The translations under genes and the position numbers were made by a program. The notes below the pieces were generated by a model that was not told where the DNA came from, did no database searches, and saw only the letters and a list, made by a program, of their open reading frames with translations. A DNA stretch of 64,000 nucleotides from Clostridia bacterium (lineage in GTDB: Bacteria; Bacillota; Clostridia; Christensenellales; CAG-138): NCBI GenBank assembly GCA_017407205.1, contig JAFQXA010000034.1:35584-99583 (forward strand). The letters run 5' to 3'. This document shows positions 14,696-60,910 of this stretch, in pieces (positions within the stretch are counted from its first letter, which is position 1; each line of letters opens with the position of its first letter).

Positions 14696-15262
14696 TCAAC
14701 GCATATATGAAGCATCATATATGGCTCTCGGTCCGCCCACATACTTGGGGCGTGTACGAGCCATAGTAATATTTGCTTCCCCTATTTTTCTTGTCTTTGC
14801 GTGAATCGGAACTACAACGGCATGCATATGCATACCGATGAATGTACCGCCGATGTCAATGCCAAGCGATGCTTTCATCTTAATATCTTCTACCATCACG
14901 GGTTCTTTAAAGCACTTTTTAGCCTGCATAGCCATCGCGCCGCCTGCATGAAGTTGAGGCACAACCCAAACCTCGCTTAAGTCATACTTTTCCATGCACG
15001 CACGTTCTACAACAAGTGAACGGTTTAAATGCTCACAGCACTGCACCGCAAGATATAATCCGTACTTTTTTACAAAGGGCAGCAATACCGACATTACAGC
15101 ACTTGCCGCTTCCTCGGACGAGCCTGTACCGATGCACTTCCCCATTATCTCGCTGCTTGAACAGCCGATGACCAAAATATCACCCGGCTTTATATTGTGC
15201 TTTGAAGCCTCTTCAAGCTCCAAAAGCGCCTCTGTCATTTGTTGTTTTATTTTGTTTGTCAT
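14696..15262 (-). CDS. TIGR01440/UPF0340 (YwlG-like) family protein
   Basis: The track starts at 15370. I prefer ATG at comp. 15260-15262 (MTNKIKQQMTEA...) behind GGAGGA. GDILVIGCSSSEI...QCCEHLNR pattern. Confidence 0.75.
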   Translation of the reverse strand: MTNKIKQQMTEALLELEEASKHNIKPGDILVIGCSSSEIMGKCIGTGSSEEAASAVMSVLLPFVKKYGLYLAVQCCEHLNRSLVVERACMEKYDLSEVWVVPQLHAGGAMAMQAKKCFKEPVMVEDIKMKASLGIDIGGTFIGMHMHAVVVPIHAKTRKIGEANITMARTRPKYVGGPRAIYDASYMR

Positions 15263-15330
15263 AAAACATCCTCCAAAGCAATCTTCATGTATTTTATCAA
15301 TATAATTTACGTAATACAACCTTTTTACGC

Positions 15331-15366
15331 ATAAAAAGACTCTCGGCCAAAAAGCCGAGAGTCTTT
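15331..15366 (-). terminator. intrinsic terminator of the 1166-aa surface protein gene
   Basis: Reverse strand: AAAGACTCTCGGC-tttttg-GCCGAGAGTCTTT, followed by TTAT. Confidence 0.75.
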
Positions 15367-15374
15367 GCACCTAT

Positions 15375-18300
15375 TCATATTCCGATTACTTTTTTCTGCA
15401 ATGCCGCAATATCTCTCGAATTAAGTTCCTTGTCGGTTCTCATATCACCGGCAATGGTTGTAATTTCATCTGCTTGTGCTGTTCCCAGAATTATCTTCTG
15501 TATAGCGGCTATATCTCTTGAATTTATTTTGCCATCACCCGTCAAGTCGCCAACAATCGCAACATCGAGCGTATCAACAACTTCTCCGTCTATAACAAGC
15601 CTTATTTGTGCACCTGTGCCTACAAGCGCATCACCCTCTGTAATCTTGTTGCCCAGATTATCATAGATTTCTATATTTTCGGGCTTATCAAATGCAGTTA
15701 TTATCTGTATCAGAGAAGTTTTTTCTTCAACACCCTTTAACTTTCCGTTTTCTGCCACATAAGTGCTTTCCGCTTTAAGTGTAAGTCCACTCGGAACAGG
15801 CAGCGTAGGTTCAGGTGTGGATGTAGCCTCCGCTGTGGGTGTAGGCGTTGGGGGTACGATGTCCGACTTATAGTCAGTTATTACCTCTGCACCCAATGTT
15901 CTGCGAATTGCGTAGTTACTTATTGCACGGAGCATTATTACTGTTATGCGGTCAAAGCATAAGCTTCCGTCCAAGCCGTTGACTTTCATCGCAGTCGGTG
16001 CTTGATTTGCGTGTGCCTTGACATATTTGGCATACGCTTTTCCGAGATAAAGATAATCGTCTTTGTCTATCACTTCATCTTCAAATGTGTCTTCACGCAC
16101 AGGGTTGATGGGATTGGTTACTTCGTACACCGTTATGGTTTCAGGCAAATCCTTGTAATCCGAATCCCAGGAAAGTTCTTTGAGCACTTCCGCCGCCATC
16201 TCTGCATAAGTTGCCTGCCTGAAGATATATTTTACTTCTTCACCGTTTTTGTTTGTAAACTCAACAGTCTTGCTTGATGGAATCTGTGCATACATATCCT
16301 TTTGATATGCTTCATAAAGTGATGCGCAGGCAGTTATTGCAAGCTTCATCGGAATTTCATACGATGTTCTTGCTGTTTCATAGTCTGCGGAAATGCTTTC
16401 GGGCAATATGCCTGTTTTTCTGAAGCTTCGCATGATTCTTGCAAGCACCAGAAGTTGGTGTGTGAAATTCATGCTTCCGCTGTACGGGAAACCTTCTGTT
16501 TCTTCAAACTCTACTGTCATAAGCGGTTGACGTCTTGAATACTTGTCAAGCTGTTCAAGCTGTTGTTCAACAAAATGAACATATCCTTCCTTGCCTATCA
16601 GGTTTTCAGCTTCGTTTACAACAAAGCTGTCAGAAGCCGTCCAAGTAAGCTCTGTGCAATCCTGTAATATTACCCTGTGAACAGCACCTGTATTTGAAAG
16701 CTCCGAAACTGCCTTTGCACAAACATCAAAAAACTGTGACATATTGAGCAATTCGTCTTTCAGGATTACGCTTTGGGGCAGAATGAAGTTTTCATCATAG
16801 TAGTCAATAAGACTCTTTGATGCAGAAATTATATCCTCGACCTCAGCATAAGTCTTTCTCTCCATTGCTATATCAATATTTTCGGGAAGCTCGCCATATT
16901 TTGCAAGGTATGAGAATATTCTCATAACAGTTATCAGTGTACGGTTGTAGTCCATCCTTCCGTTTATTCCGTAGCTGTGGTTTACCGCAATAAAGGGCGC
17001 GGGAACACACAGATACTCGTTTTCTTGTGTGAGTGTATTCATCTGTGCAAGCTGCCTTTTTACGACGTTTGAGTATGCCAACTTACTCATTGTGTCAGAA
17101 GACATTCTTGCTTCCTCCACGCCTTGAGGCTCTGTGCAAGTATAGTATGGAACATCATTTTCGTTTGCATCAAGAAGATTTGTGAGTGCTTCACAGGCAA
17201 CTCTGAAATATGATGCTTTATTTGCTGTAATTTCACCAAATGTAAGACTTTCGGGAACTGTACCTGTTTCTTCGTATTCTTTTCCTGCCTCCATCAAAAC
17301 AGCCGTTGCTTCGTCAAGCGTGAATACAGCTTCCGGCTCAGGTGTAACAATAGGTTCGACTATTTCTTCGTCCAAATAGCGCTTTGCCATTCTGAACTCA
17401 AACTTATTGCCATATGAGTCATAAAGGGAACTTTTATTACTTACAAAGTATATAGGCATTTCAGTTGAGGGCCAGATTTCCGAAATATCCTGTTTTGCCT
17501 TGAAAGTGATTTCCATGAGCCTGTCTATTTTATTGATGGGAACAGCAGCATCCGACCAAATGAATCGGAATTCCTTTGTGTCCTCATTATATACACTTTC
17601 CTTTACAGTGTCTGCACTTCTGTCATCAGGTAACTTAAAAGAAACAAGCTCTATAAATTCCGTGTTGATTCTTATCGAGAAATCCATCGCGCCTATTCTT
17701 CTCGCCTTAAAGCCGACGGGGGCACTTATAGTTACTTTAAATTCTTCGCCTGCTGATATGGAATGCTTATCCGCTGTAAGATTAAACGCATTTTCTGCAG
17801 CTGTGTAGTTATATGTAACGGTTTTGTTCTTCATGCCCTTTACCGCACGCTGGAATGCCAAAAGATCCAAAGCATTGATTTTTTTGTTTCGGTCAACATC
17901 AATTACATCCTTTGTTATTCCAATATGCTTTGTGCCGTTTAAAATCGCATCCGTTATAATGTCGGAGTCCGTTTCATTTCCGTAGCCATCCGCATTAACA
18001 TCACCGTTGACAAGCATTACGATTGAATCCAAAATCGTTTCTTCATTTTCTCGGCAAACACACCAACCTGTACGAACTATGCTTTGATTGTCAGTTATTC
18101 TGTTGCCTTTTTCGTCTGCAACATACAAATCACGGTTCACAAAGTTTTTCAAAAACGCTTCAATCGTTGTGCCGCCGGGTACATTTTTCAGATAGTCAGT
18201 TGAATAATCAAGAACATAGAAGCTTTCTTCACGAAGCTCTATCGCCACTCTTTCATTTCTCTTGTATGCAGTTGTTATGTATTCCGGCAGAACACCGTTA

Positions 18301-18875
18301 TTATAGTAGTAAGCGAGTGCCCACGAAAGTATACCGGCAACACGCGGTGCTGAAATATTACCTGAATATTCCGTTATTTTATCATTCGGATACGCAAGAT
18401 AATCAAACGCGCCACTTCCTGTTTCTGCATAATATGCCAAAACTTCATCTGCCATATCAAGGTACATTTCCTTTGATACCATGGGCGCTTTAAACGTATC
18501 ATCAGAATACTCACGGAAAGGCACAAACTCGTATGTAATCCTCATGTCAGTATTACCCTCGGACAGAGCTTTTAGTATTCTCGCTGCCAGCAAAGTATAT
18601 GACGGTGTATTGAAAACATACAGAGTTGAGCTGTCGCCTCTCATTGTAGCCCTGTCTGCAACTTCAGTATGGGTATAAAACCTGTTTCGAACAGCATTGA
18701 AACGCTGCAATGCAACCCCCATTGAAATATCGTCTTCAATAATAACGATATCGGGATTCCATTCATCATCAGGATCAGGATTTTGAGCAAAGCTCGGCAT
18801 AACCGCCATCAAAACGAAAGCTATCGCCAGAACGAAGGCTGTCAACTTTTTTATTGTTCTATTTAATGAATACAT
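15375..18875 (-). CDS. secreted scaffoldin-like protein: PMBR-like repeat modules, internal dockerin, cohesin-like domain, C-terminal dockerin
   Basis: Preferred start is ATG at comp. 18873-18875 (MYSLNRTIKKLTAFVLAIAFVLMAVMPSFAQ is a signal peptide) behind AGGAGAG. Dockerin Ca-loops: DVNADG...DVDRNKKINALDLLAFQRAV (~17835-18010) and GDLTGDGKINSRDIAAIQ...GDMRTDKELNSRDIAALQ (15375-15560). Cohesin-like beta-sandwich pattern at ~17400-17815. Repeated modules end in LPE[YNS]I. Confidence 0.75.
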   Translation of the reverse strand: MYSLNRTIKKLTAFVLAIAFVLMAVMPSFAQNPDPDDEWNPDIVIIEDDISMGVALQRFNAVRNRFYTHTEVADRATMRGDSSTLYVFNTPSYTLLAARILKALSEGNTDMRITYEFVPFREYSDDTFKAPMVSKEMYLDMADEVLAYYAETGSGAFDYLAYPNDKITEYSGNISAPRVAGILSWALAYYYNNGVLPEYITTAYKRNERVAIELREESFYVLDYSTDYLKNVPGGTTIEAFLKNFVNRDLYVADEKGNRITDNQSIVRTGWCVCRENEETILDSIVMLVNGDVNADGYGNETDSDIITDAILNGTKHIGITKDVIDVDRNKKINALDLLAFQRAVKGMKNKTVTYNYTAAENAFNLTADKHSISAGEEFKVTISAPVGFKARRIGAMDFSIRINTEFIELVSFKLPDDRSADTVKESVYNEDTKEFRFIWSDAAVPINKIDRLMEITFKAKQDISEIWPSTEMPIYFVSNKSSLYDSYGNKFEFRMAKRYLDEEIVEPIVTPEPEAVFTLDEATAVLMEAGKEYEETGTVPESLTFGEITANKASYFRVACEALTNLLDANENDVPYYTCTEPQGVEEARMSSDTMSKLAYSNVVKRQLAQMNTLTQENEYLCVPAPFIAVNHSYGINGRMDYNRTLITVMRIFSYLAKYGELPENIDIAMERKTYAEVEDIISASKSLIDYYDENFILPQSVILKDELLNMSQFFDVCAKAVSELSNTGAVHRVILQDCTELTWTASDSFVVNEAENLIGKEGYVHFVEQQLEQLDKYSRRQPLMTVEFEETEGFPYSGSMNFTHQLLVLARIMRSFRKTGILPESISADYETARTSYEIPMKLAITACASLYEAYQKDMYAQIPSSKTVEFTNKNGEEVKYIFRQATYAEMAAEVLKELSWDSDYKDLPETITVYEVTNPINPVREDTFEDEVIDKDDYLYLGKAYAKYVKAHANQAPTAMKVNGLDGSLCFDRITVIMLRAISNYAIRRTLGAEVITDYKSDIVPPTPTPTAEATSTPEPTLPVPSGLTLKAESTYVAENGKLKGVEEKTSLIQIITAFDKPENIEIYDNLGNKITEGDALVGTGAQIRLVIDGEVVDTLDVAIVGDLTGDGKINSRDIAAIQKIILGTAQADEITTIAGDMRTDKELNSRDIAALQKKVIGI

Positions 18876-18914
18876 TTTTAACTCTCCTGTTTGCAATTCT
18901 TAAACTCCAAGTTT

Positions 18915-18943
18915 ATTATACCAATTTTCATACAGCCACACAA
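18915..18943 (-). promoter_or_regulatory. putative promoter of the scaffoldin-like gene
   Basis: The reverse strand reads TTGTGT, a 17-nt spacer, then TGgTATAAT (extended -10). Confidence 0.4.
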
Positions 18944-18949
18944 TAAACT

Positions 18950-18991
18950 AATAAAAAATAAATGCCCATTGTTTTTACCACAATGAGCATT
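18950..18991 (-). terminator. intrinsic terminator after asd
   Basis: Reverse strand: AATGCTCATTGT-ggtaaaa-ACAATGGGCATT, followed by TATTTTTTATT. Confidence 0.7.
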
Positions 18992-19007
18992 TTTAAATTT
19001 CATTTGA

Positions 19008-20012
19008 TTATTTTGCAAGCAATTCTGCAATCTGAACAGCATTTGTAGCCGCACCCTTGCGTACCTGGTCGCCACAGCACCAAAGTGTCAATCCAAACTC
19101 TTCGTTTGTTATATCGCGGCGAATTCTGCCAACATATACAAGGTCCTGGTCACTGGTATCAAGGGGCATGGGATATGCCTTCGTTTCGGGATCGTCAACG
19201 AGCTTACAGCCCTTTGCCTTTGCGATTGCTTCTTTTGCTTCTTCAACCGTTATATGTTTCTCTGTTGTAAGAGCTATTGAAATCGAGTGTGAACGCATTA
19301 CGGGAACACGTACGCAAGTGCAGTTTACCTTAAGTGCAGGCAAATGCATAATCTTTCTTCCCTCGTTCTGCATCTTCATTTCTTCGGATGTATAGCCGTT
19401 CTCGCCAAAACCGCCAATCTGGGGAATGAGGTTAAAAGCTATCTGATACGGGAATACCTTTGATGTGATTTCACCGCCTTCTACATAAGCCTTTGCCTGT
19501 GTTTCAAGCTCTGTCAAGCCCTCTGCACCTGCACCTGAAACTGCCTGATATGTTGAAGCTACCATTGTCTTTATGGGGGAAAGCTCCTTTATTGCATTAA
19601 CTGCAACCAATGCGATTATTGTGGAGCAGTTCGGATTTGCGATTATGCCGTTATGCTTTTCTACATCTTCGGGGTTGATTTCGGGAACTACCAAGGGGAC
19701 GTCATCACAAAGTCTGAATGCGCTTGAGTTGTCAACAAATACAGCGCCTGCTGCTTTTATTGCGGGTGCAAATTCCTTTGCATACTTATTATCAACAGCA
19801 CCCAAAACTATATCCATACCCTCGAATGCTTCGTTGCAAGCAAGCTCCACCGTCAACTCTTTTCCTGCAAACATAATCTTTGAACCAACGCTTCTGGGAC
19901 TTGCAAGACATTTAAGCGTATTTACGGGGAAATTACGCTCTGCCAAAACCTTCAACATTTCACGGCCTACGGCACCCGTCGCACCAAGAACTGCTACATT
20001 ATACTTTTTCAT
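19008..20012 (-). CDS. asd: aspartate-semialdehyde dehydrogenase
   Basis: 334 aa. VLGATGAVG NAD motif and NPNCSTI active-site Cys region. Confidence 0.95.
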   Translation of the reverse strand: MKKYNVAVLGATGAVGREMLKVLAERNFPVNTLKCLASPRSVGSKIMFAGKELTVELACNEAFEGMDIVLGAVDNKYAKEFAPAIKAAGAVFVDNSSAFRLCDDVPLVVPEINPEDVEKHNGIIANPNCSTIIALVAVNAIKELSPIKTMVASTYQAVSGAGAEGLTELETQAKAYVEGGEITSKVFPYQIAFNLIPQIGGFGENGYTSEEMKMQNEGRKIMHLPALKVNCTCVRVPVMRSHSISIALTTEKHITVEEAKEAIAKAKGCKLVDDPETKAYPMPLDTSDQDLVYVGRIRRDITNEEFGLTLWCCGDQVRKGAATNAVQIAELLAK

Positions 20013-35704: not shown

Positions 35705-37564
35705 TTATCTTAAATTAAATTGCCCATTATGGCTTAACAATCTTTCTTCCTCACTCTGCGCAAATGCTGTTTCCCAGTTATTATAACTGTCAATTGCACC
35801 AAACTTGCCTGCATGAGTAATAATATCACCGTTACGATACTTCTCACTCATAATTCCCGGTGCTGTCATAATGCGTTTATTCATAGCTGACTTAAGAGCA
35901 CAAGGATCTGACAAGCAAGGTATTATATCGCTCGAAATTTGTATTTTTTGTTCTGTAAAGTATTTTGATTCTCTTGCTATATGCTCCAAAATACAAGAAG
36001 CTTCTTTTATCAAATGATTTTTCCGTTCCTCCACGAAAGGATGCTGTGCAGCTCTGCGTATATCTTCATGGTTTTCACGGAACAATCTGACTGCGCGTCT
36101 CAAGAGTTTTGAGCTTTCAATAACATCATCAGCAGTAGCAGCATGATCTGCTTCACAATAGCTAACCAAATGTATAATGCTCGGCGATAACAACATTTGA
36201 AGCAAAGTAGTTCTTGCCAACTGATATTTTGCATAATCCTGGTCTACCGAAAAATGCTCAATTCCTGCACGGGTTTCCAAATAAATATTGTGCTGTGTTG
36301 CTGTAGGCTTAAGTTTTCGGATAATCTCCCGTGCTGCATAAAATTTAGCCAAATCTGCATAATCACCCATTTCAACAGGCTTATTAAACTGGCATTGGAA
36401 GATCATATGTTGTGATAAAGCTGCATACATTACGCTTGCAATCAATCCATAATCTGCTACAAAAACAGCATCATGTGCCAAACGGGATGACCATTGATTC
36501 GGATCATTCATCTCTGTGGGAATACCCTGCTTTACAAGATATTTTACAGCCCCAATATGCTCATCAATGGCTTTATCAACACTCATCGGACCACGGCCGT
36601 CAAGCTCGCTGAACCAAAACAAAGGAACAGCTTGATGTGCACCACGCAACATACCAACCTCAAGGCATGTATCAATAAAAGGAATAATATCCTTTACATG
36701 ACAATACGGCTTCACTGACGGGAAATTACCTATCCGCGAAGCTGAAAACAGCTCTTCTAAATCGGATTTTGTCTTGTACGGAACTCCACCATCGTTTTTC
36801 ACACCATAAAACGCATTAGCATCACCGAAAAATCGCTGTGATAAATCCGACGAGCCCAACGAAATTTCATCCACAGCACCTGCTGACGCAATGCGTATAA
36901 TCCCTTCAACCGTAGGTGCTATTGAATCATCCGGGATGCCAAAATGTGTGCGAATCATCGGAATATCGGATTCTGCCATGCGAGTCGGAAAATGTAAAAG
37001 CGCTTTATCCGATGGTCTTTTTAAAGGCTGCTCATCTAAATACAAATCGCCTCTTACTACTTCTTTTGCTATTTCATCAAGCAGTTCAATTCTTTCAGGG
37101 CTCGCTTCCTCACGGAACACATCCAATATTTTCTGTGCTTCTGAATGATTTTCACCGCCAAAAAACTTGATTGTTCCAATCGTTGTTTCATAAATATCTT
37201 TTGACTGCATCTGTAAATTCAGATTGTATTTAGCATCAAATCCTAACTGATGAACTGCAGCAAGCGTTTCAGGTAATGCCGCAAAGCAAATAGAGCTCTT
37301 TTCAAAAATGAAAGATGCTCCTTGTTCCAAGGCTTGCAAAAACTTCGTTAATTCGCCAATCGCCTGCTCTGCGCTTAAACGATAGCTTAAGCCCAAGAAG
37401 GTCGGACATACCTGCTTTATTATTTCTATTTTCTTTTCCAAAGCGGTATCCGGAGGAACTACTTGTGTCTGAACTCCAAGCATTTTTGCAATTCGTGCAG
37501 CTCTATAAATACCGACAGTATGTGGGTCACCACCCAATGTCATCCCCAAAAAAATACGTTCCAT
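35705..37564 (-). CDS. B12-binding-domain protein fused to a large glutamate-mutase-E-like(?) domain
   Basis: The track starts at 37591. I prefer ATG at 37564 (MERIFLGMTLGGDPHTVG) behind GGAGGA. GDPHTVG fits the DxHxxG cobalamin motif and LGLSYRLS fits SxL. The C-terminal ~480 aa shows only faint similarity by eye to GlmE/MutE (NFPSVK vs GFPGVN). Confidence 0.5.
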   Translation of the reverse strand: MERIFLGMTLGGDPHTVGIYRAARIAKMLGVQTQVVPPDTALEKKIEIIKQVCPTFLGLSYRLSAEQAIGELTKFLQALEQGASFIFEKSSICFAALPETLAAVHQLGFDAKYNLNLQMQSKDIYETTIGTIKFFGGENHSEAQKILDVFREEASPERIELLDEIAKEVVRGDLYLDEQPLKRPSDKALLHFPTRMAESDIPMIRTHFGIPDDSIAPTVEGIIRIASAGAVDEISLGSSDLSQRFFGDANAFYGVKNDGGVPYKTKSDLEELFSASRIGNFPSVKPYCHVKDIIPFIDTCLEVGMLRGAHQAVPLFWFSELDGRGPMSVDKAIDEHIGAVKYLVKQGIPTEMNDPNQWSSRLAHDAVFVADYGLIASVMYAALSQHMIFQCQFNKPVEMGDYADLAKFYAAREIIRKLKPTATQHNIYLETRAGIEHFSVDQDYAKYQLARTTLLQMLLSPSIIHLVSYCEADHAATADDVIESSKLLRRAVRLFRENHEDIRRAAQHPFVEERKNHLIKEASCILEHIARESKYFTEQKIQISSDIIPCLSDPCALKSAMNKRIMTAPGIMSEKYRNGDIITHAGKFGAIDSYNNWETAFAQSEEERLLSHNGQFNLR

Positions 37565-37598
37565 TCTCAATCCTCCGTTAAATATCGCCATATAAGCG

Positions 37599-56133: not shown

Positions 56134-57672
56134 TCACCACGCTGTAACTGAAATCTCATCCGGCAAGAAGCCGTTTGCAAAGTAGTAGTCTAAAGCCCTT
56201 GCAAAGAGATAAATCATATTATAGTGATTCATCGTGCCAAACTCAGTCGTGACATATGCAGGTACTGCATTATTTGTATAAACCGCTGTTGCAATTCTCT
56301 GCGCAAGCTTTATATAAGATGTCTTTGTAAATGTTACTTCTGTTATAGTTTCGCTTACTGCACTCTTTGGCGTTGCAATCTCCTTGAGTGGCATATTATT
56401 AGCCTTACCACGATTTATATTGCTTACGGTCGCCGCAAAAAGTCTGAGCATTGTGCCGATATACACTCTCGTGTTTTCAGCAAGAGTTACATACTTCGGC
56501 ATCTCATCAGTGCTTTCAATTGCAACAACAAGGCGACGTGCACCTTTCAAAATATCAACAAAGTTAAGATAAGTGTAATCAGGAGCTACACTGTCCTCGG
56601 GCGGTGTCGGCAAGCTTTCATGCCAAGGCTCCACAATAATGCTGTCAATCAAAATTCCGCTTGATGCATATCTTATGCAGATTTTAACAAAGGTTCTGAT
56701 AAGCGTTTCAGCGGACAACGCACCGACCGTTTGTGTATTTATAAAGCCTTTTACTGCACACTCAGGTGAGTTGTCAACATAGTTCAAAACTGACTGTGCA
56801 GTTTCTACATAATCCCAGCTTTCAAATATAACGCCCGTTATATTTTCGTATGATTTTTCTATGTAAGCCGCTTCGCTTCTCTCGATAATATCGTCAACAT
56901 AGCCGTTTGAGGCATCAACTATTATTTTTGAAACCAAAACCAAGAATTCAGGCATAAACACCTGCTCATTTTCAATCGTTACATACGGGGGACAAGCCTT
57001 ATTTTCTGCTATATATGTATTAACACTTTGGCAAGCCGCGAAAACGCTTGAAGTTTTGAATTCTACCGTTCCTACCTGTGGCGGTGCGGGCATGGGACTT
57101 TCCCAAGATGTCACTTCCACAGATTCGGGAAGTATGCTTGTCTGCCTGTAAAGTGAACCAACACGTGCAAAAGCTCCGATTATGCTGCTGAACGACATCG
57201 CACCAAGAGGTGTCTGTATATAGCCGGGTGCTTCTCCCTTTTTATTGATATAATCTACTGTATCATAAGCCAAGGCGAGATATTCTTGCTTTGTAAGCGT
57301 GCCTGACATCATCTTTTCATACTCAATTGACTTTTCACTTATGCTGTTTCTGAAAACATAAGTTGTGTTGCCTTTTTCTTCGTTTATGATGAATTCAGCC
57401 ATTATGCCGATAAACTCATTCATATAGATGTGATTACCGGCAATTGTCGCATACTTCGGCAACTCACCCGGATTATTGGTAATGTAAAGGTCAACGCCAT
57501 TTGCTGAATAGAGTACATCTTTATCCGGCAAACATTCTAAGTCGGCAGAAGCATGCCCACCATCGTAATATATATCGTTTTCTCCGTTATCGACTAATCG
57601 TGCAAAACTAAAACCCGAAAACACGCTGAACACAAAAGCCAAAGCCAAAACAAACGCGATAGTCTTTTTCAT
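56134..57672 (-). CDS. secreted protein made only of pseudomurein-binding-repeat-like modules
   Basis: Signal peptide MKKTIAFVLALAFVFSVFSGFSFA. Four modules end in ...LPESVEVTSW, ...LIDSIIVEPW and ...FLPDEISVTAW. Paralogous to 15375-18875 and 58784-60910. Confidence 0.65.
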   Translation of the reverse strand: MKKTIAFVLALAFVFSVFSGFSFARLVDNGENDIYYDGGHASADLECLPDKDVLYSANGVDLYITNNPGELPKYATIAGNHIYMNEFIGIMAEFIINEEKGNTTYVFRNSISEKSIEYEKMMSGTLTKQEYLALAYDTVDYINKKGEAPGYIQTPLGAMSFSSIIGAFARVGSLYRQTSILPESVEVTSWESPMPAPPQVGTVEFKTSSVFAACQSVNTYIAENKACPPYVTIENEQVFMPEFLVLVSKIIVDASNGYVDDIIERSEAAYIEKSYENITGVIFESWDYVETAQSVLNYVDNSPECAVKGFINTQTVGALSAETLIRTFVKICIRYASSGILIDSIIVEPWHESLPTPPEDSVAPDYTYLNFVDILKGARRLVVAIESTDEMPKYVTLAENTRVYIGTMLRLFAATVSNINRGKANNMPLKEIATPKSAVSETITEVTFTKTSYIKLAQRIATAVYTNNAVPAYVTTEFGTMNHYNMIYLFARALDYYFANGFLPDEISVTAW

Positions 57673-58783: not shown

Positions 58784-60910
58784 TTAGAACGGTAATGTGA
58801 TGTAGACGCCGCTGAGAACTCTTACCCTTGCAACTGACTGCGGAAGTGAAGTTCTCAAAGTATTACCGTTGTTTGAAAGGTCACCATGATACCACTTACC
58901 ATTGATGTAGCACTGTGCCCAAACGTGACCGTAACGACCGCCGGAGCTTGAAGTTACCTGACCATGATAGTATCTTGCAGGAACACCGGATGCTCTCCAA
59001 ACAGCTACCAACATATGTGCCAAGTCACAGCAGTTACCTTTACGCTTGTTCCATGTACCCAAAGCACCGAGCTTTGTGTTGTAGTAAACATACCAGTAAG
59101 ATGTCTTAGCCTGGAGGTAATTGAAGATGTTGAATGCCATCTTGTACTGCGTTGTAGCTGAGCCTCTTGCCGTCTTTGATACGGACTTGATTGTTGAGTT
59201 GTTCACCTGGCAGTTTGTTGTTGCCTTTGTATACTTCTCATAGCCTGACGGGCAAGCCTGAAGCTTTGAGCTGGAGCTTGAACTTGAACTTGAGCTGGAG
59301 CTTGATGCTGTTGCACCGAACTTGGAAACTGATACATAGTTGGGAAGATCGCCGTTGGTCTTGTGATAAGCAAGGATTCTTGCAAATGCGTAAATCAATG
59401 ACTTATAACCGACCTTTGATGTCTTATATGTGCAGTATGTAGGAGCTGTTTTTGAATTGGAATCCATGTAAGAAACAACTCTCTTTGCCATATCCTTGTA
59501 ATTTGACTTATAGATGGTCAATGTACCGGAGATACTGTCCGTGCTTGTTGACGGAGCCTTTGCGCCGACTGCCTTGTAAGTATTCGTTGTCTTGCCGTTT
59601 GTCAAATCATAAGTTGCTTTTGCAAAGATGTAAAGGGCGTTGGGCATTGAAACCTTTGTGCCATTGATTGTAACACTGCTGGGCAAAGCTTTCTTTGAAG
59701 CGATATGCGACTTAACAGTAGCTGCAGCGGACTTAACCTGTGCCATTGTGAATGTTGTTGCAGCCGGTGCTGTTGTCGGCTTTGTTGTGGGAGCCACAGT
59801 TGCTGTGGGAGCCTTAGTTGCAGTAGTGGTTGTTGAAGTTGTGAACTTCTTCCATGCCTGTACTGCTACATAGTTGGGAAGCGTATTGCTGTTTGCCTTG
59901 TAGTAAGCAAGGATTCTTGCAAATGCATAAACTACAACTGCATAGCAGAGCTCGCCGTTAGCTGTTGTTGATGCATAGTTGGGAGCCTGTGAATTTGTCG
60001 TAAAGAAGTTATAAACGTTGTCTGCAATCTTTACGTATGCAGCCTTCTGAATGTTACCCGCTTTTGTTGTGTCGAGAGCTACAGGTGATTCAGGAGCTTT
60101 CATTGCCTTTGAATAGATTGACAAAGAAGTTGAACCGTCATTAATGTTGCAGATAGCTGCTGCCATCATTCTCAAGAATGTGGGAGTTGCGGTTACGTAG
60201 CTGCCAATCTTCAAAGTTGCAGGAATAGCTTTCTTTGACTCGATTGTTTTCTTAAGAGTTGTTGCAGCTGTTGTGATCTGTGCCAATGTGAATGACATGC
60301 TGTTTGTTGTTGTAACAGCTGTTGTCGGAGTCGGAGTCTTTGTGGGAGCTACAGTTGCAGGAGCTGCAGTAGTGGTTGTTGCTGTGCCTGTAAATGTCTT
60401 CCACGGTGTCAAAGCAACCGTTGCAGGAAGTCTTGAATTTGTCTTGTAAAATACCAAAGCCTTTGCATACATATACATGAGGTTGCAGTAGTTAACCGTA
60501 ACTGAACCGATTGTTGCAAAGTTGGGCATTGTCTTGTTTGTTGCAACATAATCCAAAAGAACCTTTGTTTTTGCAGCATAATCTGCCAAAGCAATTGTAC
60601 CATTTACAGTATCAACTGCTGTCGGGTTTTCAGCTGCTGCAACTTCCGTTACGTCAAGAGCGTTCTTTGAGCCGTTTGCAAGATTGTCAACCTGCTTGAA
60701 CATCAAGAGTGTGAACTCAGAATGCTTCAATGTGTTTCCTGCTACCGTTACCGTAGCCGGTGTGTACTTGTTTTTCTCAATAAATGTCTGCACATTTGTT
60801 GCTGCAGTATAAAGATCGGCCGCTGTAACAGTTGTTGCAGCCAATGACACCATAGGTATTACGGAGAATACCATAATGAGTGCCAATACAAGGGATAAAG
60901 CTTTTTTCAT
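58784..60910 (-). CDS. secreted PMBR-like repeat protein with a C-terminal transglutaminase-like cysteine-protease core
   Basis: Signal peptide MKKALSLVLALIMVFSVIPMVSLA. Repeated modules (FTLAQITTAATTLKKTIESKKAIPATLKI; FARILAYYKANSNTLPNYVAV; FARILAYHKTNGDLPNYVSV) are separated by T/P/A linkers, followed by a poly-Ser run. Core is GNCCDLAHMLVAVWRASGVPARYYHG...GHVWAQCYINGKWYHGD (Cys-His-Asp), ~58784-59175. Confidence 0.75.
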   Translation of the reverse strand: MKKALSLVLALIMVFSVIPMVSLAATTVTAADLYTAATNVQTFIEKNKYTPATVTVAGNTLKHSEFTLLMFKQVDNLANGSKNALDVTEVAAAENPTAVDTVNGTIALADYAAKTKVLLDYVATNKTMPNFATIGSVTVNYCNLMYMYAKALVFYKTNSRLPATVALTPWKTFTGTATTTTAAPATVAPTKTPTPTTAVTTTNSMSFTLAQITTAATTLKKTIESKKAIPATLKIGSYVTATPTFLRMMAAAICNINDGSTSLSIYSKAMKAPESPVALDTTKAGNIQKAAYVKIADNVYNFFTTNSQAPNYASTTANGELCYAVVVYAFARILAYYKANSNTLPNYVAVQAWKKFTTSTTTTATKAPTATVAPTTKPTTAPAATTFTMAQVKSAAATVKSHIASKKALPSSVTINGTKVSMPNALYIFAKATYDLTNGKTTNTYKAVGAKAPSTSTDSISGTLTIYKSNYKDMAKRVVSYMDSNSKTAPTYCTYKTSKVGYKSLIYAFARILAYHKTNGDLPNYVSVSKFGATASSSSSSSSSSSSSKLQACPSGYEKYTKATTNCQVNNSTIKSVSKTARGSATTQYKMAFNIFNYLQAKTSYWYVYYNTKLGALGTWNKRKGNCCDLAHMLVAVWRASGVPARYYHGQVTSSSGGRYGHVWAQCYINGKWYHGDLSNNGNTLRTSLPQSVARVRVLSGVYITLPF
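59267..59305 (-). repeat. 13-codon poly-Ser tract built from a near-palindromic DNA repeat
   Basis: tgagctggagcttga-acttgaact-tgagctggagcttga. Encodes S13 between the last repeat module and the catalytic domain. Confidence 0.8.

Follow-up and report, generated by a model that had tools for sequence, protein, structure and literature searches.

Cohesin-dockerin complexes are known to be held on cells by SLH domains or sortase and on substrates by CBMs. The anchoring scaffoldins of C. thermocellum bear SLH domains, and R. flavefaciens ScaC is an adaptor, or small scaffoldin, of a ruminococcal system. R. flavefaciens ScaE and R. bromii Sca2 are sortase-anchored scaffoldins, R. bromii Sca1/Amy4 joins a cohesin to a dockerin and Sca3 joins a cohesin to four X25 binding modules; such single-cohesin ruminococcal adaptors can build small complexes and are able to self-associate (PMC4611034). 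PMB domains, for their part, have been found experimentally to bind cell walls, with at least three motifs being required; that of MTH719 has a pI of 10.6, is reported to need positive charge for binding, and also bound bacterial wall material (PMC3210951).

Here we describe a putative adaptor from an uncultured Clostridia bacterium of the ruminant gut that brings PMB-type modules together with a cohesin and two dockerins. This architecture is real and apparently undescribed so far. Among the papers searched, none of relevance dealt with PMBR together with dockerin.

The putative adaptor gene and its domain order

The gene lies on the minus strand of the window (the whole 64-kb stretch of DNA that was analysed). 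A single ORF spans 15375..18896(-), and the true start is the ATG at 18875, which has AGGAGA 7 nt upstream; the gene so defined coincides exactly with the coordinates 15375-18875 of the initial annotation. Residues are numbered here on the 1166-aa product P0001, and ORF numbering, where used, is +7. The product is secreted, acidic (mature pI 4.6) and of ~128 kDa, with a signal peptide that carries no lipobox Cys, and the gene probably has its own promoter upstream. Its features are as follows, all on the minus strand.

15375..18875 (-): whole adaptor gene, 1166 aa plus stop (ORF list; identical to P0001/MBQ2662281.1)
18883..18992 (-): expression signals of the adaptor gene (terminator scan and sequence read)
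18992-18960 (-): terminator of the upstream asd gene (terminator scan)
18923-18915 (-): predicted -10-like box, TGGTATAAT (read from sequence)
18888-18883 (-): ribosome-binding site, AGGAGA (sequence read)
18786..18875 (-): signal peptide, aa 1-30, MYSLNRTIKKLTAFVLAIAFVLMAVMPSFA followed by QN (read directly from sequence)
18270..18725 (-): PMB module 1, aa 51-202 (Pfam PMBR; module HMM and motif matches)
18021..18242 (-): beta-rich stalk module X1, aa 212-285, immediately N-terminal to dockerin 1 (internal similarity to X2)
17835..18011 (-): dockerin 1, aa 289-347 (Pfam; PDB 3ul4_B, E 0.01)
17397..17783 (-): putative cohesin, ~aa 365-493 (Pfam; PF00963 match of P0003; hhalign against P0025)
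16869..17321 (-): PMB module 2, aa 519-669 (module alignment and HMM; AlphaFold2; Foldseek)
16386..16844 (-): PMB module 3, aa 678-830 (self-comparison, module alignment and HMM)
15876..16352 (-): PMB module 4, aa 842-1000 (self-phmmer, module alignment and HMM)
15792..15875 (-): Pro/Thr-rich linker, aa 1001-1028 (sequence)
15564..15791 (-): stalk module X2, aa 1029-1104 (internal similarity; stalks of relatives)
15381..15557 (-): dockerin 2, aa 1107-1165 (Pfam; PDB dockerins down to E 1e-6)

From the N to the C terminus the order is signal peptide, PMB module 1, a ~75-aa beta module (X1), dockerin 1, cohesin, PMB modules 2-4, Pro/Thr linker, X2 and dockerin 2. Every part that the initial annotation had claimed (signal peptide, PMBR-like modules, internal and C-terminal dockerins and, marginally, the cohesin) is present, and its several PMBR-like modules correspond to four paralogues, but only one of them, not several, precedes dockerin 1, the other three following the cohesin.

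At E<=1 the only Pfam families found in the whole adaptor were PMBR, Dockerin_1 and Cohesin. The scan of the whole protein contained no SLH, LPXTG, LysM or catalytic domain, confirming that the adaptor carries no SLH or sortase signal, and the C-terminus is a dockerin with no LPXTG sorting signal after it. The full-length AlphaFold2 model (pLDDT 38) was unusable.

In its general plan the adaptor resembles R. bromii Sca1/Amy4 and Sca3, being secreted and combining one cohesin, as a socket, with a plug or with binding modules. Unlike them, however, it has no GH13, X25 or CBM detectable by Pfam, its accessory modules are of PMB type, and its cohesin is flanked by two dockerins of different types. 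We rejected an orthologous relationship to R. bromii Sca3/Sca4, since Sca3 is defined by X25 (PMC4611034), which the adaptor lacks, and none of the three homologue clusters found contained a ruminococcal homologue. As in the SLH- and sortase-anchored scaffoldins, a cohesin-dockerin assembly is predicted to be tied to a cell surface, but in the adaptor any such link would be non-covalent, by way of the PMB modules, or indirect, by way of the dockerins.

Dockerins, stalks and cohesin

Both dockerins show the duplicated loop-then-helix pattern and pass the Dockerin_1 (PF00404) cut-off of 22.9 bits, dockerin 1 with 27.4 bits (ORF aa 298-351) and dockerin 2 with 41.2 bits (ORF aa 1116-1170). Dockerin 1 is asymmetric, with two canonical 12-residue Ca loops (DVNADGYGNETD and DVDRNKKINALD) and divergent helices. 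Dockerin 2 has duplicated 12-residue Ca-binding loops (DLTGDGKINSRD and DMRTDKELNSRD), each followed by a helix, and is symmetric, 'NSRDIAA(I/L)QK' occurring in both segments. Judged by their sequences, the two are of different types. The type of dockerin 2 is that of all the other PMB-module dockerin proteins and of an LRR-dockerin neighbour in the locus L001; the presence of this type on an LRR protein encoded beside the L001 orthologue shows that the dockerin network of these organisms is a wider one.

The similarity that had been noticed between the stalks before each dockerin held up: stalk plus dockerin is duplicated (ORF aa 256-354 versus 1074-1172, E 7e-10), as is the stalk alone (ORF aa 219-277 versus 1038-1095, E 9e-4). 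X1 matched no Pfam family. This stalk also stands before the dockerins of the unrelated PMB proteins P0009, P0010 and P0017. Stalk plus dockerin 2, used as the query of a word-indexed homologue search, gave a single short match.

The cohesin assignment is marginal. Cohesin (PF00963, cut-off 24.1 bits) matched ORF aa 372-472 with 26.1 bits when the segment was scanned alone and with 22.3 bits in the whole protein, and the orthologue P0003 has a precomputed PF00963 match listed as 'faint'. The region retrieved P0025, a protein with four cohesins, at E 1.6e-8 by phmmer in 1.84 billion sequences, and hhalign aligned it with the P0025 cohesins over 119 of 132 columns (80% probability, E 1.4e-5). 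A PDB sequence search with the cohesin profile gave no cohesin match. The cohesin fold is a nine-stranded beta-sandwich, and the full-length model has 8 strands at aa 365-495, at a pLDDT of ~40. Profile detection of the proposed segments thus succeeded for the dockerins and, marginally, for the cohesin.

No partner cohesin or dockerin gene was found within the 64-kb window. A local cohesin/dockerin gene cluster was rejected, there being no other dockerin in the window or in the 10 kb past its right edge.

PMB-type modules and their relatives

PMBR (PF09373) matched ORF aa 38-218, the region of module 1, with 38.1 bits (cut-off 24.9), and modules 2-4 had no Pfam match of their own; of the domains that the initial annotation had named (PF00963, PF00404 and PMBR), Pfam therefore recovered the dockerins, module 1 and, narrowly, the cohesin, but not the remaining modules. 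Self-comparison, module alignment and HMM identified the four ~150-aa modules as paralogues. A locally iterated PMBR motif HMM matched modules 1-3. Module 4 has diverged furthest of the four, and its nearest counterpart is module 1: by self-phmmer, ORF aa 84-151 aligned with 881-954 at E 1.5e-5. Searched separately, each module retrieved bacterial modules from other proteins, with values between 1e-8 and 1e-24.

The AlphaFold2 model of module 2 reached a pLDDT of 92.5. When it was compared by Foldseek with the PDB and a viral structure library, the top and sole match with a probability above 0.9 was PeiP, a phage pseudomurein endoisopeptidase, whose whole four-motif domain was covered (probability 0.98, E 4e-3, 153-159 columns), with a TM-score of only 0.38 and an rmsd of 12.6 (PDB) to 14.1 (viral library). 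HMMER gave no direct sequence link between the modules and PeiP, and PDB sequence searches with the module profile and with a Methanobrevibacter-type PMBR protein gave no PMB-domain match. We read each module as equivalent to a complete PMB domain with four motifs, as in PeiP/PeiW. The modules share with the PMB domains of PeiP/PeiW and of the S-layer protein MTH719 (PF09373; PDB 8z4f) their ~30-35-residue helical units ending in G-x-LP, with module 1 lying above the PMBR threshold and a single module spanning the whole four-motif PeiP domain in Foldseek. In contrast to PeiP/PeiW, the host is bacterial, and in place of a cysteine protease the modules accompany a cohesin and dockerins. Unlike the basic MTH719 domain, the modules are also strongly acidic, with a pI of 4.5-4.9 and a net charge of -5 to -11. 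They score 27-79 bits against bacterial dockerin-linked modules versus 6-34 bits against methanogen-type modules, which by sequence places them in a diverged, bacterial, dockerin-associated subclass.

This acidity, the absence of Pfam matches for modules 2-4 and the finding that the PMBR-like helices are the only well-conserved part would also fit helical modules that bind no glycan and instead space the cohesin and the dockerins rigidly apart or mediate protein-protein interactions in between. We consider such a role rather improbable, because a discrete, tandemly repeated module of ~140-160 aa is kept across bacteria and methanogens, because the G..LP and SK..Y motifs are conserved across all four paralogues, and because proteins made of such modules and a dockerin only would then be functionless.

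The adaptor family is very rare, comprising three protein clusters from different samples, and since all the domains are kept in these orthologue clusters at only 58-60% identity, the whole architecture is maintained. No relative turned up when genome contigs were scanned with the adaptor protein, or metagenomes with P0009 and the family alignment, and a module profile built from 35 sequences gave no match in a word-indexed homologue search. The gene lies between asd and a DUF436 gene here, between rpsI and DUF436 in L001, and next to MreB in L002/L003; L004, the nearest of the reference genomes, lacks it between asd and DUF436. Conserved synteny was rejected on account of these differing flanks and of the absence in L004. 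Two further PMB proteins encoded in the window have methanogen-like modules; one of them, of 708 aa, has basic modules and is PeiW/PeiP-like, combining PMB with a transglutaminase-type protease.

Among the external homologues 23 of 31 carry Pfam PMBR. P0009 and P0010 are composed solely of PMB modules, stalk and dockerin, a composition that fits PMB as a unit for binding that dockerins bring into place. In P0012 and P0017/P0045 the PMB modules come after Cthe_2159 carbohydrate-binding beta-helix domains, and in P0013 after a GHL10/GHL6 glycosidase-like domain; P0013 also has an LPXTG anchor, so that a pure self-anchoring role of PMB would be redundant there. The joining of the same module to glycan-active domains, once beside LPXTG, looks more like CBM-type targeting.

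The PMB-like modules may accordingly have become ordinary CBMs for dietary or host polysaccharide, with the adaptor acting as the substrate-binding subunit of a fibre-degrading complex. Their nearest relatives occupy the usual places of CBMs in these proteins, cellulosomal modules commonly have an acidic pI, and Sca3 provides the precedent of a cohesin protein with binding modules (PMC4611034). We nevertheless regard substrate targeting as somewhat unlikely, since the documented PMB ligands are only pseudomurein and bacterial wall material, and no plant polysaccharide (PMC3210951), and since no dockerin-bearing glycoside hydrolase was found in the window or the related loci. The repeats did not prove to be a known CBM.

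More distant relatives of the module are surface proteins of Methanobrevibacter and Methanobacterium. The adhesin-like and transglutaminase-type proteins of Methanobacteriales (PMC11532034; P0022, P0024, P0030) have the same ~140-aa module in tandem arrays, but they are archaeal, lack cohesin and dockerin, and pair the module with beta-helix, Ig-like or transglutaminase domains. These homologues, together with the ruminant-gut habitat, PeiP as the sole fold match, pseudomurein as the proven ligand of the family (PMC3210951) and the PeiW/PeiP-like PMB protease with basic, methanogen-like modules encoded in the window, are consistent with the bridging suggested in the initial annotation, in which PMB arrays would bind Methanobrevibacter pseudomurein and couple the bacterium or its complex to an H2-consuming partner. 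We give this bridging little credence, because the modules of the adaptor are acidic, diverged and bacterial, the methanogen-like ones being on the two other window proteins, and because PMB on a bacterial protease is more simply explained by an autolysin for the cell's own wall. We find it equally improbable that a gut Clostridia lineage took the PMB domain of Methanobacteriales into its cohesin-dockerin network and, through the PMB arrays of the adaptor and of the PMB-stalk-dockerin proteins, fastens itself or its complexes to Methanobrevibacter walls for interspecies H2 transfer, or uses these arrays along with the neighbouring Pei-like PMB protease to attack methanogen walls.

Proposed role and significance

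The explanation that we favour, with some hesitation, is that the adaptor is a secreted, non-catalytic small scaffoldin whose PMB modules hold an assembly on a cell-wall-type glycan. Its one cohesin would be a socket for one dockerin-bearing partner. Dockerin 2 would plug the protein into whichever cohesin accepts the 'NSRDIAALQK' type, and because this is the common symmetric type of the lineage, the protein should be loadable onto a matching cohesin; were that cohesin the adaptor's own, chains could form. The divergent dockerin 1 probably plugs into a different cohesin. By analogy with characterised PMB domains, the four modules, one alone and three in an array, would be the ligand-binding element, replacing the CBM3 or X25 of other scaffoldins or the SLH of anchoring ones. 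They would thereby give a non-covalent hold on a GlcNAc-containing wall-type glycan, the simplest candidate being the producer's own murein. The acidity of the modules, set against the basic nature of the characterised PMB domain, counts against this wall-binding reading, as do their membership of a diverged subclass, the missing HMMER link to PeiP and the TM-score of 0.38. The marginal cohesin, the LPXTG anchor of P0013 and the lack of a partner cohesin or dockerin gene in the 64-kb window likewise weigh against the adaptor reading.

The reach of the finding is limited by the rarity of the family, which is known only from metagenomes. If the favoured reading is true, however, a scaffoldin with PMB-type modules as its only accessories would represent a third kind of attachment, and a wall-binding domain that is nearly methanogen-specific would have been put to use in bacteria, in the ruminant gut, where contact between bacteria and methanogens controls hydrogen transfer and methane output.

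Gene and domain architecture

The region holds one long ORF on the minus strand (15375..18896). An AGGAGA ribosome-binding site lies 7 nt upstream of the ATG at 18875, and we therefore set the gene at 15375..18875, in exact agreement with the initial annotation. Its 1166-aa product (P0001) is identical to MBQ2662281.1, annotated as 'hypothetical protein' in a Clostridia MAG. Since the upstream gene, asd, is followed by a strong hairpin terminator (18992-18960, terminator scan), and since the focal ATG is preceded by its own TGGTATAAT box, read in the sequence, as well as by AGGAGA, the gene is predicted to be its own transcription unit.

The whole-protein Pfam scan returned only three families, Dockerin_1, Cohesin and PMBR (the pseudomurein-binding, PMB, repeat family), and found no catalytic domain, SLH or LPXTG anchor. 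Segments were also scanned separately, with cut-offs of 24.9 (PMBR), 22.9 (dockerin) and 24.1 bits (cohesin). Residues are numbered on the 1166-aa product; ORF numbering is 7 higher.

Pfam domains of the focal protein (ORF numbering)
aa 38-218: PMBR, 38.1 bits, segment scan
aa 298-351: dockerin 1, 27.4 bits, segment scan
aa 372-472: cohesin, 26.1 bits for the segment alone, 22.3 bits in the whole protein
aa 1116-1170: dockerin 2, 41.2 bits, segment scan

Both dockerins proposed initially thus exceed the Pfam cut-off, and in each the pair of 12-residue calcium loops is canonical. Among solved dockerins, the best match to dockerin 2 reaches E 1e-6; dockerin 1 is divergent overall, yet highly conserved among orthologues. 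The proposed cohesin passes as an isolated segment but falls under the cut-off in the whole protein, and it is the weakest of the domain calls because a PDB sequence search of this region matched no solved cohesin. Three findings speak for it. The orthologue P0003 has a precomputed PF00963 match, graded 'faint'. Searched against 1.84 billion sequences, the region matches P0025 at E 1.6e-8, a protein with four strong cohesins (Pfam E 4e-31), and profile-profile comparison with these cohesins covered 119/132 columns at 80% probability. P0025 (734 aa), to which the focal cohesin is most closely related, carries its four cohesins in tandem and has a Por tail of type IX secretion.

A ~75-aa beta-rich stalk, duplicated as the initial annotation had noticed, precedes each dockerin; the internal match reaches E 7e-10 for stalk plus dockerin and E 9e-4 for the stalk alone. 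The same stalk precedes the dockerins of the related proteins P0009, P0010 and P0017, and is absent ahead of the dockerin in an LRR protein at L001, the locus of the orthologue P0002. The segment scan assigned it to no Pfam family, and the full-length model (pLDDT 38) is unusable for judging its fold. Stalk plus dockerin would behave like an X-dockerin dyad. Overall, the protein is secreted and combines four PMB-type modules with one cohesin and a pair of dissimilar dockerins.

Sequence and fold of the PMB-type modules

Self-comparison and a MAFFT alignment of the module paralogues of three orthologues delimited four ~150-aa modules (aa 51-202, 519-669, 678-830 and 842-1000). All four share a helix with G-x-LP after it, then a hairpin, two helices marked by 'ASYF' and 'SK..Y', and a last, canonical PMBR helix. 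The PMBR-like modules of the initial annotation are real as four paralogues, of which Pfam detects module 1 alone and not modules 2-4; a PMBR motif HMM iterated on homologues also matched modules 2 and 3. Exhaustive phmmer with the cohesin and modules 2-4 as query yielded no more than 32 proteins at E<1e-3. All these homologues contain the same tandem unit of ~140-160 aa, and Pfam recognised PMBR in 23 of the 31 scanned.

AlphaFold2, given the 12 paralogous modules, modelled module 2 with confidence (pLDDT 92.5, pTM 0.88). The sole probable match of this model, PeiP, is a pseudomurein endoisopeptidase and came up in two collections, the PDB (8z4f_A, probability 0.98, E 4e-3, 159 columns) and a viral structure library (Q77WJ4, probability 0.98). 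One focal module matches the extent of the whole four-motif PMB domain of PeiP and PeiW (PMC3210951). Since the TM-score to PeiP is low (0.38) and HMMER gave no direct sequence link between the two, we call the modules 'PMB-type', as they appear not to be orthodox PMB domains.

Distribution and relatives

The full architecture occurs in only three 90%-identity clusters from different assemblies, 58-60% identical to one another and with all domains kept. By an asd-anchored scan, the organism belongs with uncultured Clostridia of Oscillospiraceae/Acutalibacteraceae type from ruminant and animal guts, and the same contig is present in the ruminant metagenome assembly 'XIEF21-1_SAMN15829895'. In the closest reference, the goat-rectum MAG RGIG3096 (L004; Asd 92%, and 76% identical at the nucleotide level over 5 kb), a DUF436 gene comes directly after asd, at ~113 bp, so that the focal gene of 3.5 kb is lacking (L004 5704-6336 compared with window 14712-19008). 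It was found at none of the 80 related loci. DUF436 lies directly downstream in two of the three carrier genomes (the window and L001), and the neighbours differ among orthologues. Given these absences and differing neighbours, the gene is patchy and lineage-specific, through insertion or loss.

The closest relatives of the modules are bacterial:

P0009: PMB x5-stalk-dockerin
P0010: PMB x3-stalk-dockerin
P0017/P0045: Cthe_2159-PMB-dockerin
P0012 (MBQ2662375.1): Cthe_2159-PMB x2, partial carbohydrate-binding protein, outside the window
P0013: GHL10-PMB x2-LPXTG

All dockerins of these nearest relatives have the same symmetric 'NSRDIAALQK' signature as dockerin 2. Since 94 numbers separate the two accessions, P0012 probably comes from the same MAG as the focal protein; if so, one genome encodes at least four PMB-module proteins. 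P0038 (643 aa) has an N-terminal dockerin (aa 27-85) followed by two PMB modules. Farther off are surface proteins of Methanobrevibacter and Methanobacterium, which also contain beta-helix, Ig-like or transglutaminase domains. The LRR_5 (BspA-type) protein adjoining P0002 (L001 116-2686) ends in an 'NSRDIAALQK'-type dockerin, which is evidence that the non-enzymatic dockerin repertoire of these organisms is wider.

Predicted role and other PMB proteins in the window

Four readings of the modules were weighed on known ligands, acidity, module scores and position. The only characterised relatives are PMB domains, whose ligand is pseudomurein and, once, bacterial wall material, and whose binding requires at least three motifs (PMC3210951). 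We tentatively favour an adaptor whose modules may bind wall-type glycan. That review (PMC3210951) puts weight on positive charge, whereas the modules of the focal protein are strongly acidic (pI 4.5-4.9, charge -5 to -11). A role as spacers seems improbable. In relatives the modules occupy CBM-like positions, in one case beside an LPXTG anchor; a CBM-like substrate role is possible but unlikely. Bridging to a methanogen, raised in the initial annotation, also seems improbable for the focal modules, which score 27-79 bits against bacterial dockerin-linked modules and 6-34 bits against methanogen-type ones. Two further proteins in the window bear on it:

58784..60910 (-): secreted PMB-protease of 708 aa, in which a signal peptide and three PMB modules (Pfam PMBR, 108.7 bits) precede a cysteine protease core of transglutaminase type at the C-terminus
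56134..57672 (-): secreted PMB-only protein of 512 aa, with three PMB modules (Pfam PMBR, 52 bits) behind a signal peptide and no other domain

Modules of both score best as methanogen-type (35-73 bits, against 14-50 for bacterial). In the 708-aa protein a poly-Ser run and Thr/Pro/Ala linkers set the modules apart; they are basic (pI 8.0/9.4/9.9) and nearer to the Methanobrevibacter type than to the focal modules. The protein has the architecture of PeiW and PeiP, here in a bacterium, and could act as an autolysin or as an enzyme directed at methanogen walls. On this evidence the bacterium has two PMB subclasses, canonical basic modules on a likely wall peptidase and diverged acidic ones on dockerin proteins, which keeps the methanogen idea alive for the 708-aa neighbour and weakens it for the focal gene. 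The 512-aa gene adjoins an ABC-2 transporter pair and a response-regulator gene, and a 628-aa ORF at 35705-37591 (-) has no Pfam family at E<=0.001.

As an adaptor within a cohesin-dockerin network, the focal protein would use dockerin 2 as a common-currency plug and dockerin 1 for a different cohesin. Its cohesin would recruit one partner, possibly a second copy of the protein via dockerin 2, and the PMB-type modules would bind cell-wall-type glycan, so anchoring or targeting the assembly. It is functionally like, and not orthologous to, the binding-module scaffoldin Sca3 of R. bromii and single-cohesin adaptors (PMC4611034). In a 2011 review the only listed carriers of PMB motifs are four genera of methanogens, five of proteobacteria, and two prophages (PMC3210951), and our literature search found no paper pairing PMBR with either cohesin or dockerin. 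The family is very rare and known from metagenomes only, which limits the reach of a role that is predicted. The architecture nonetheless appears real and unusual, and it yields a testable hypothesis. As an anchor, the protein would be of a different kind from SLH and sortase systems.
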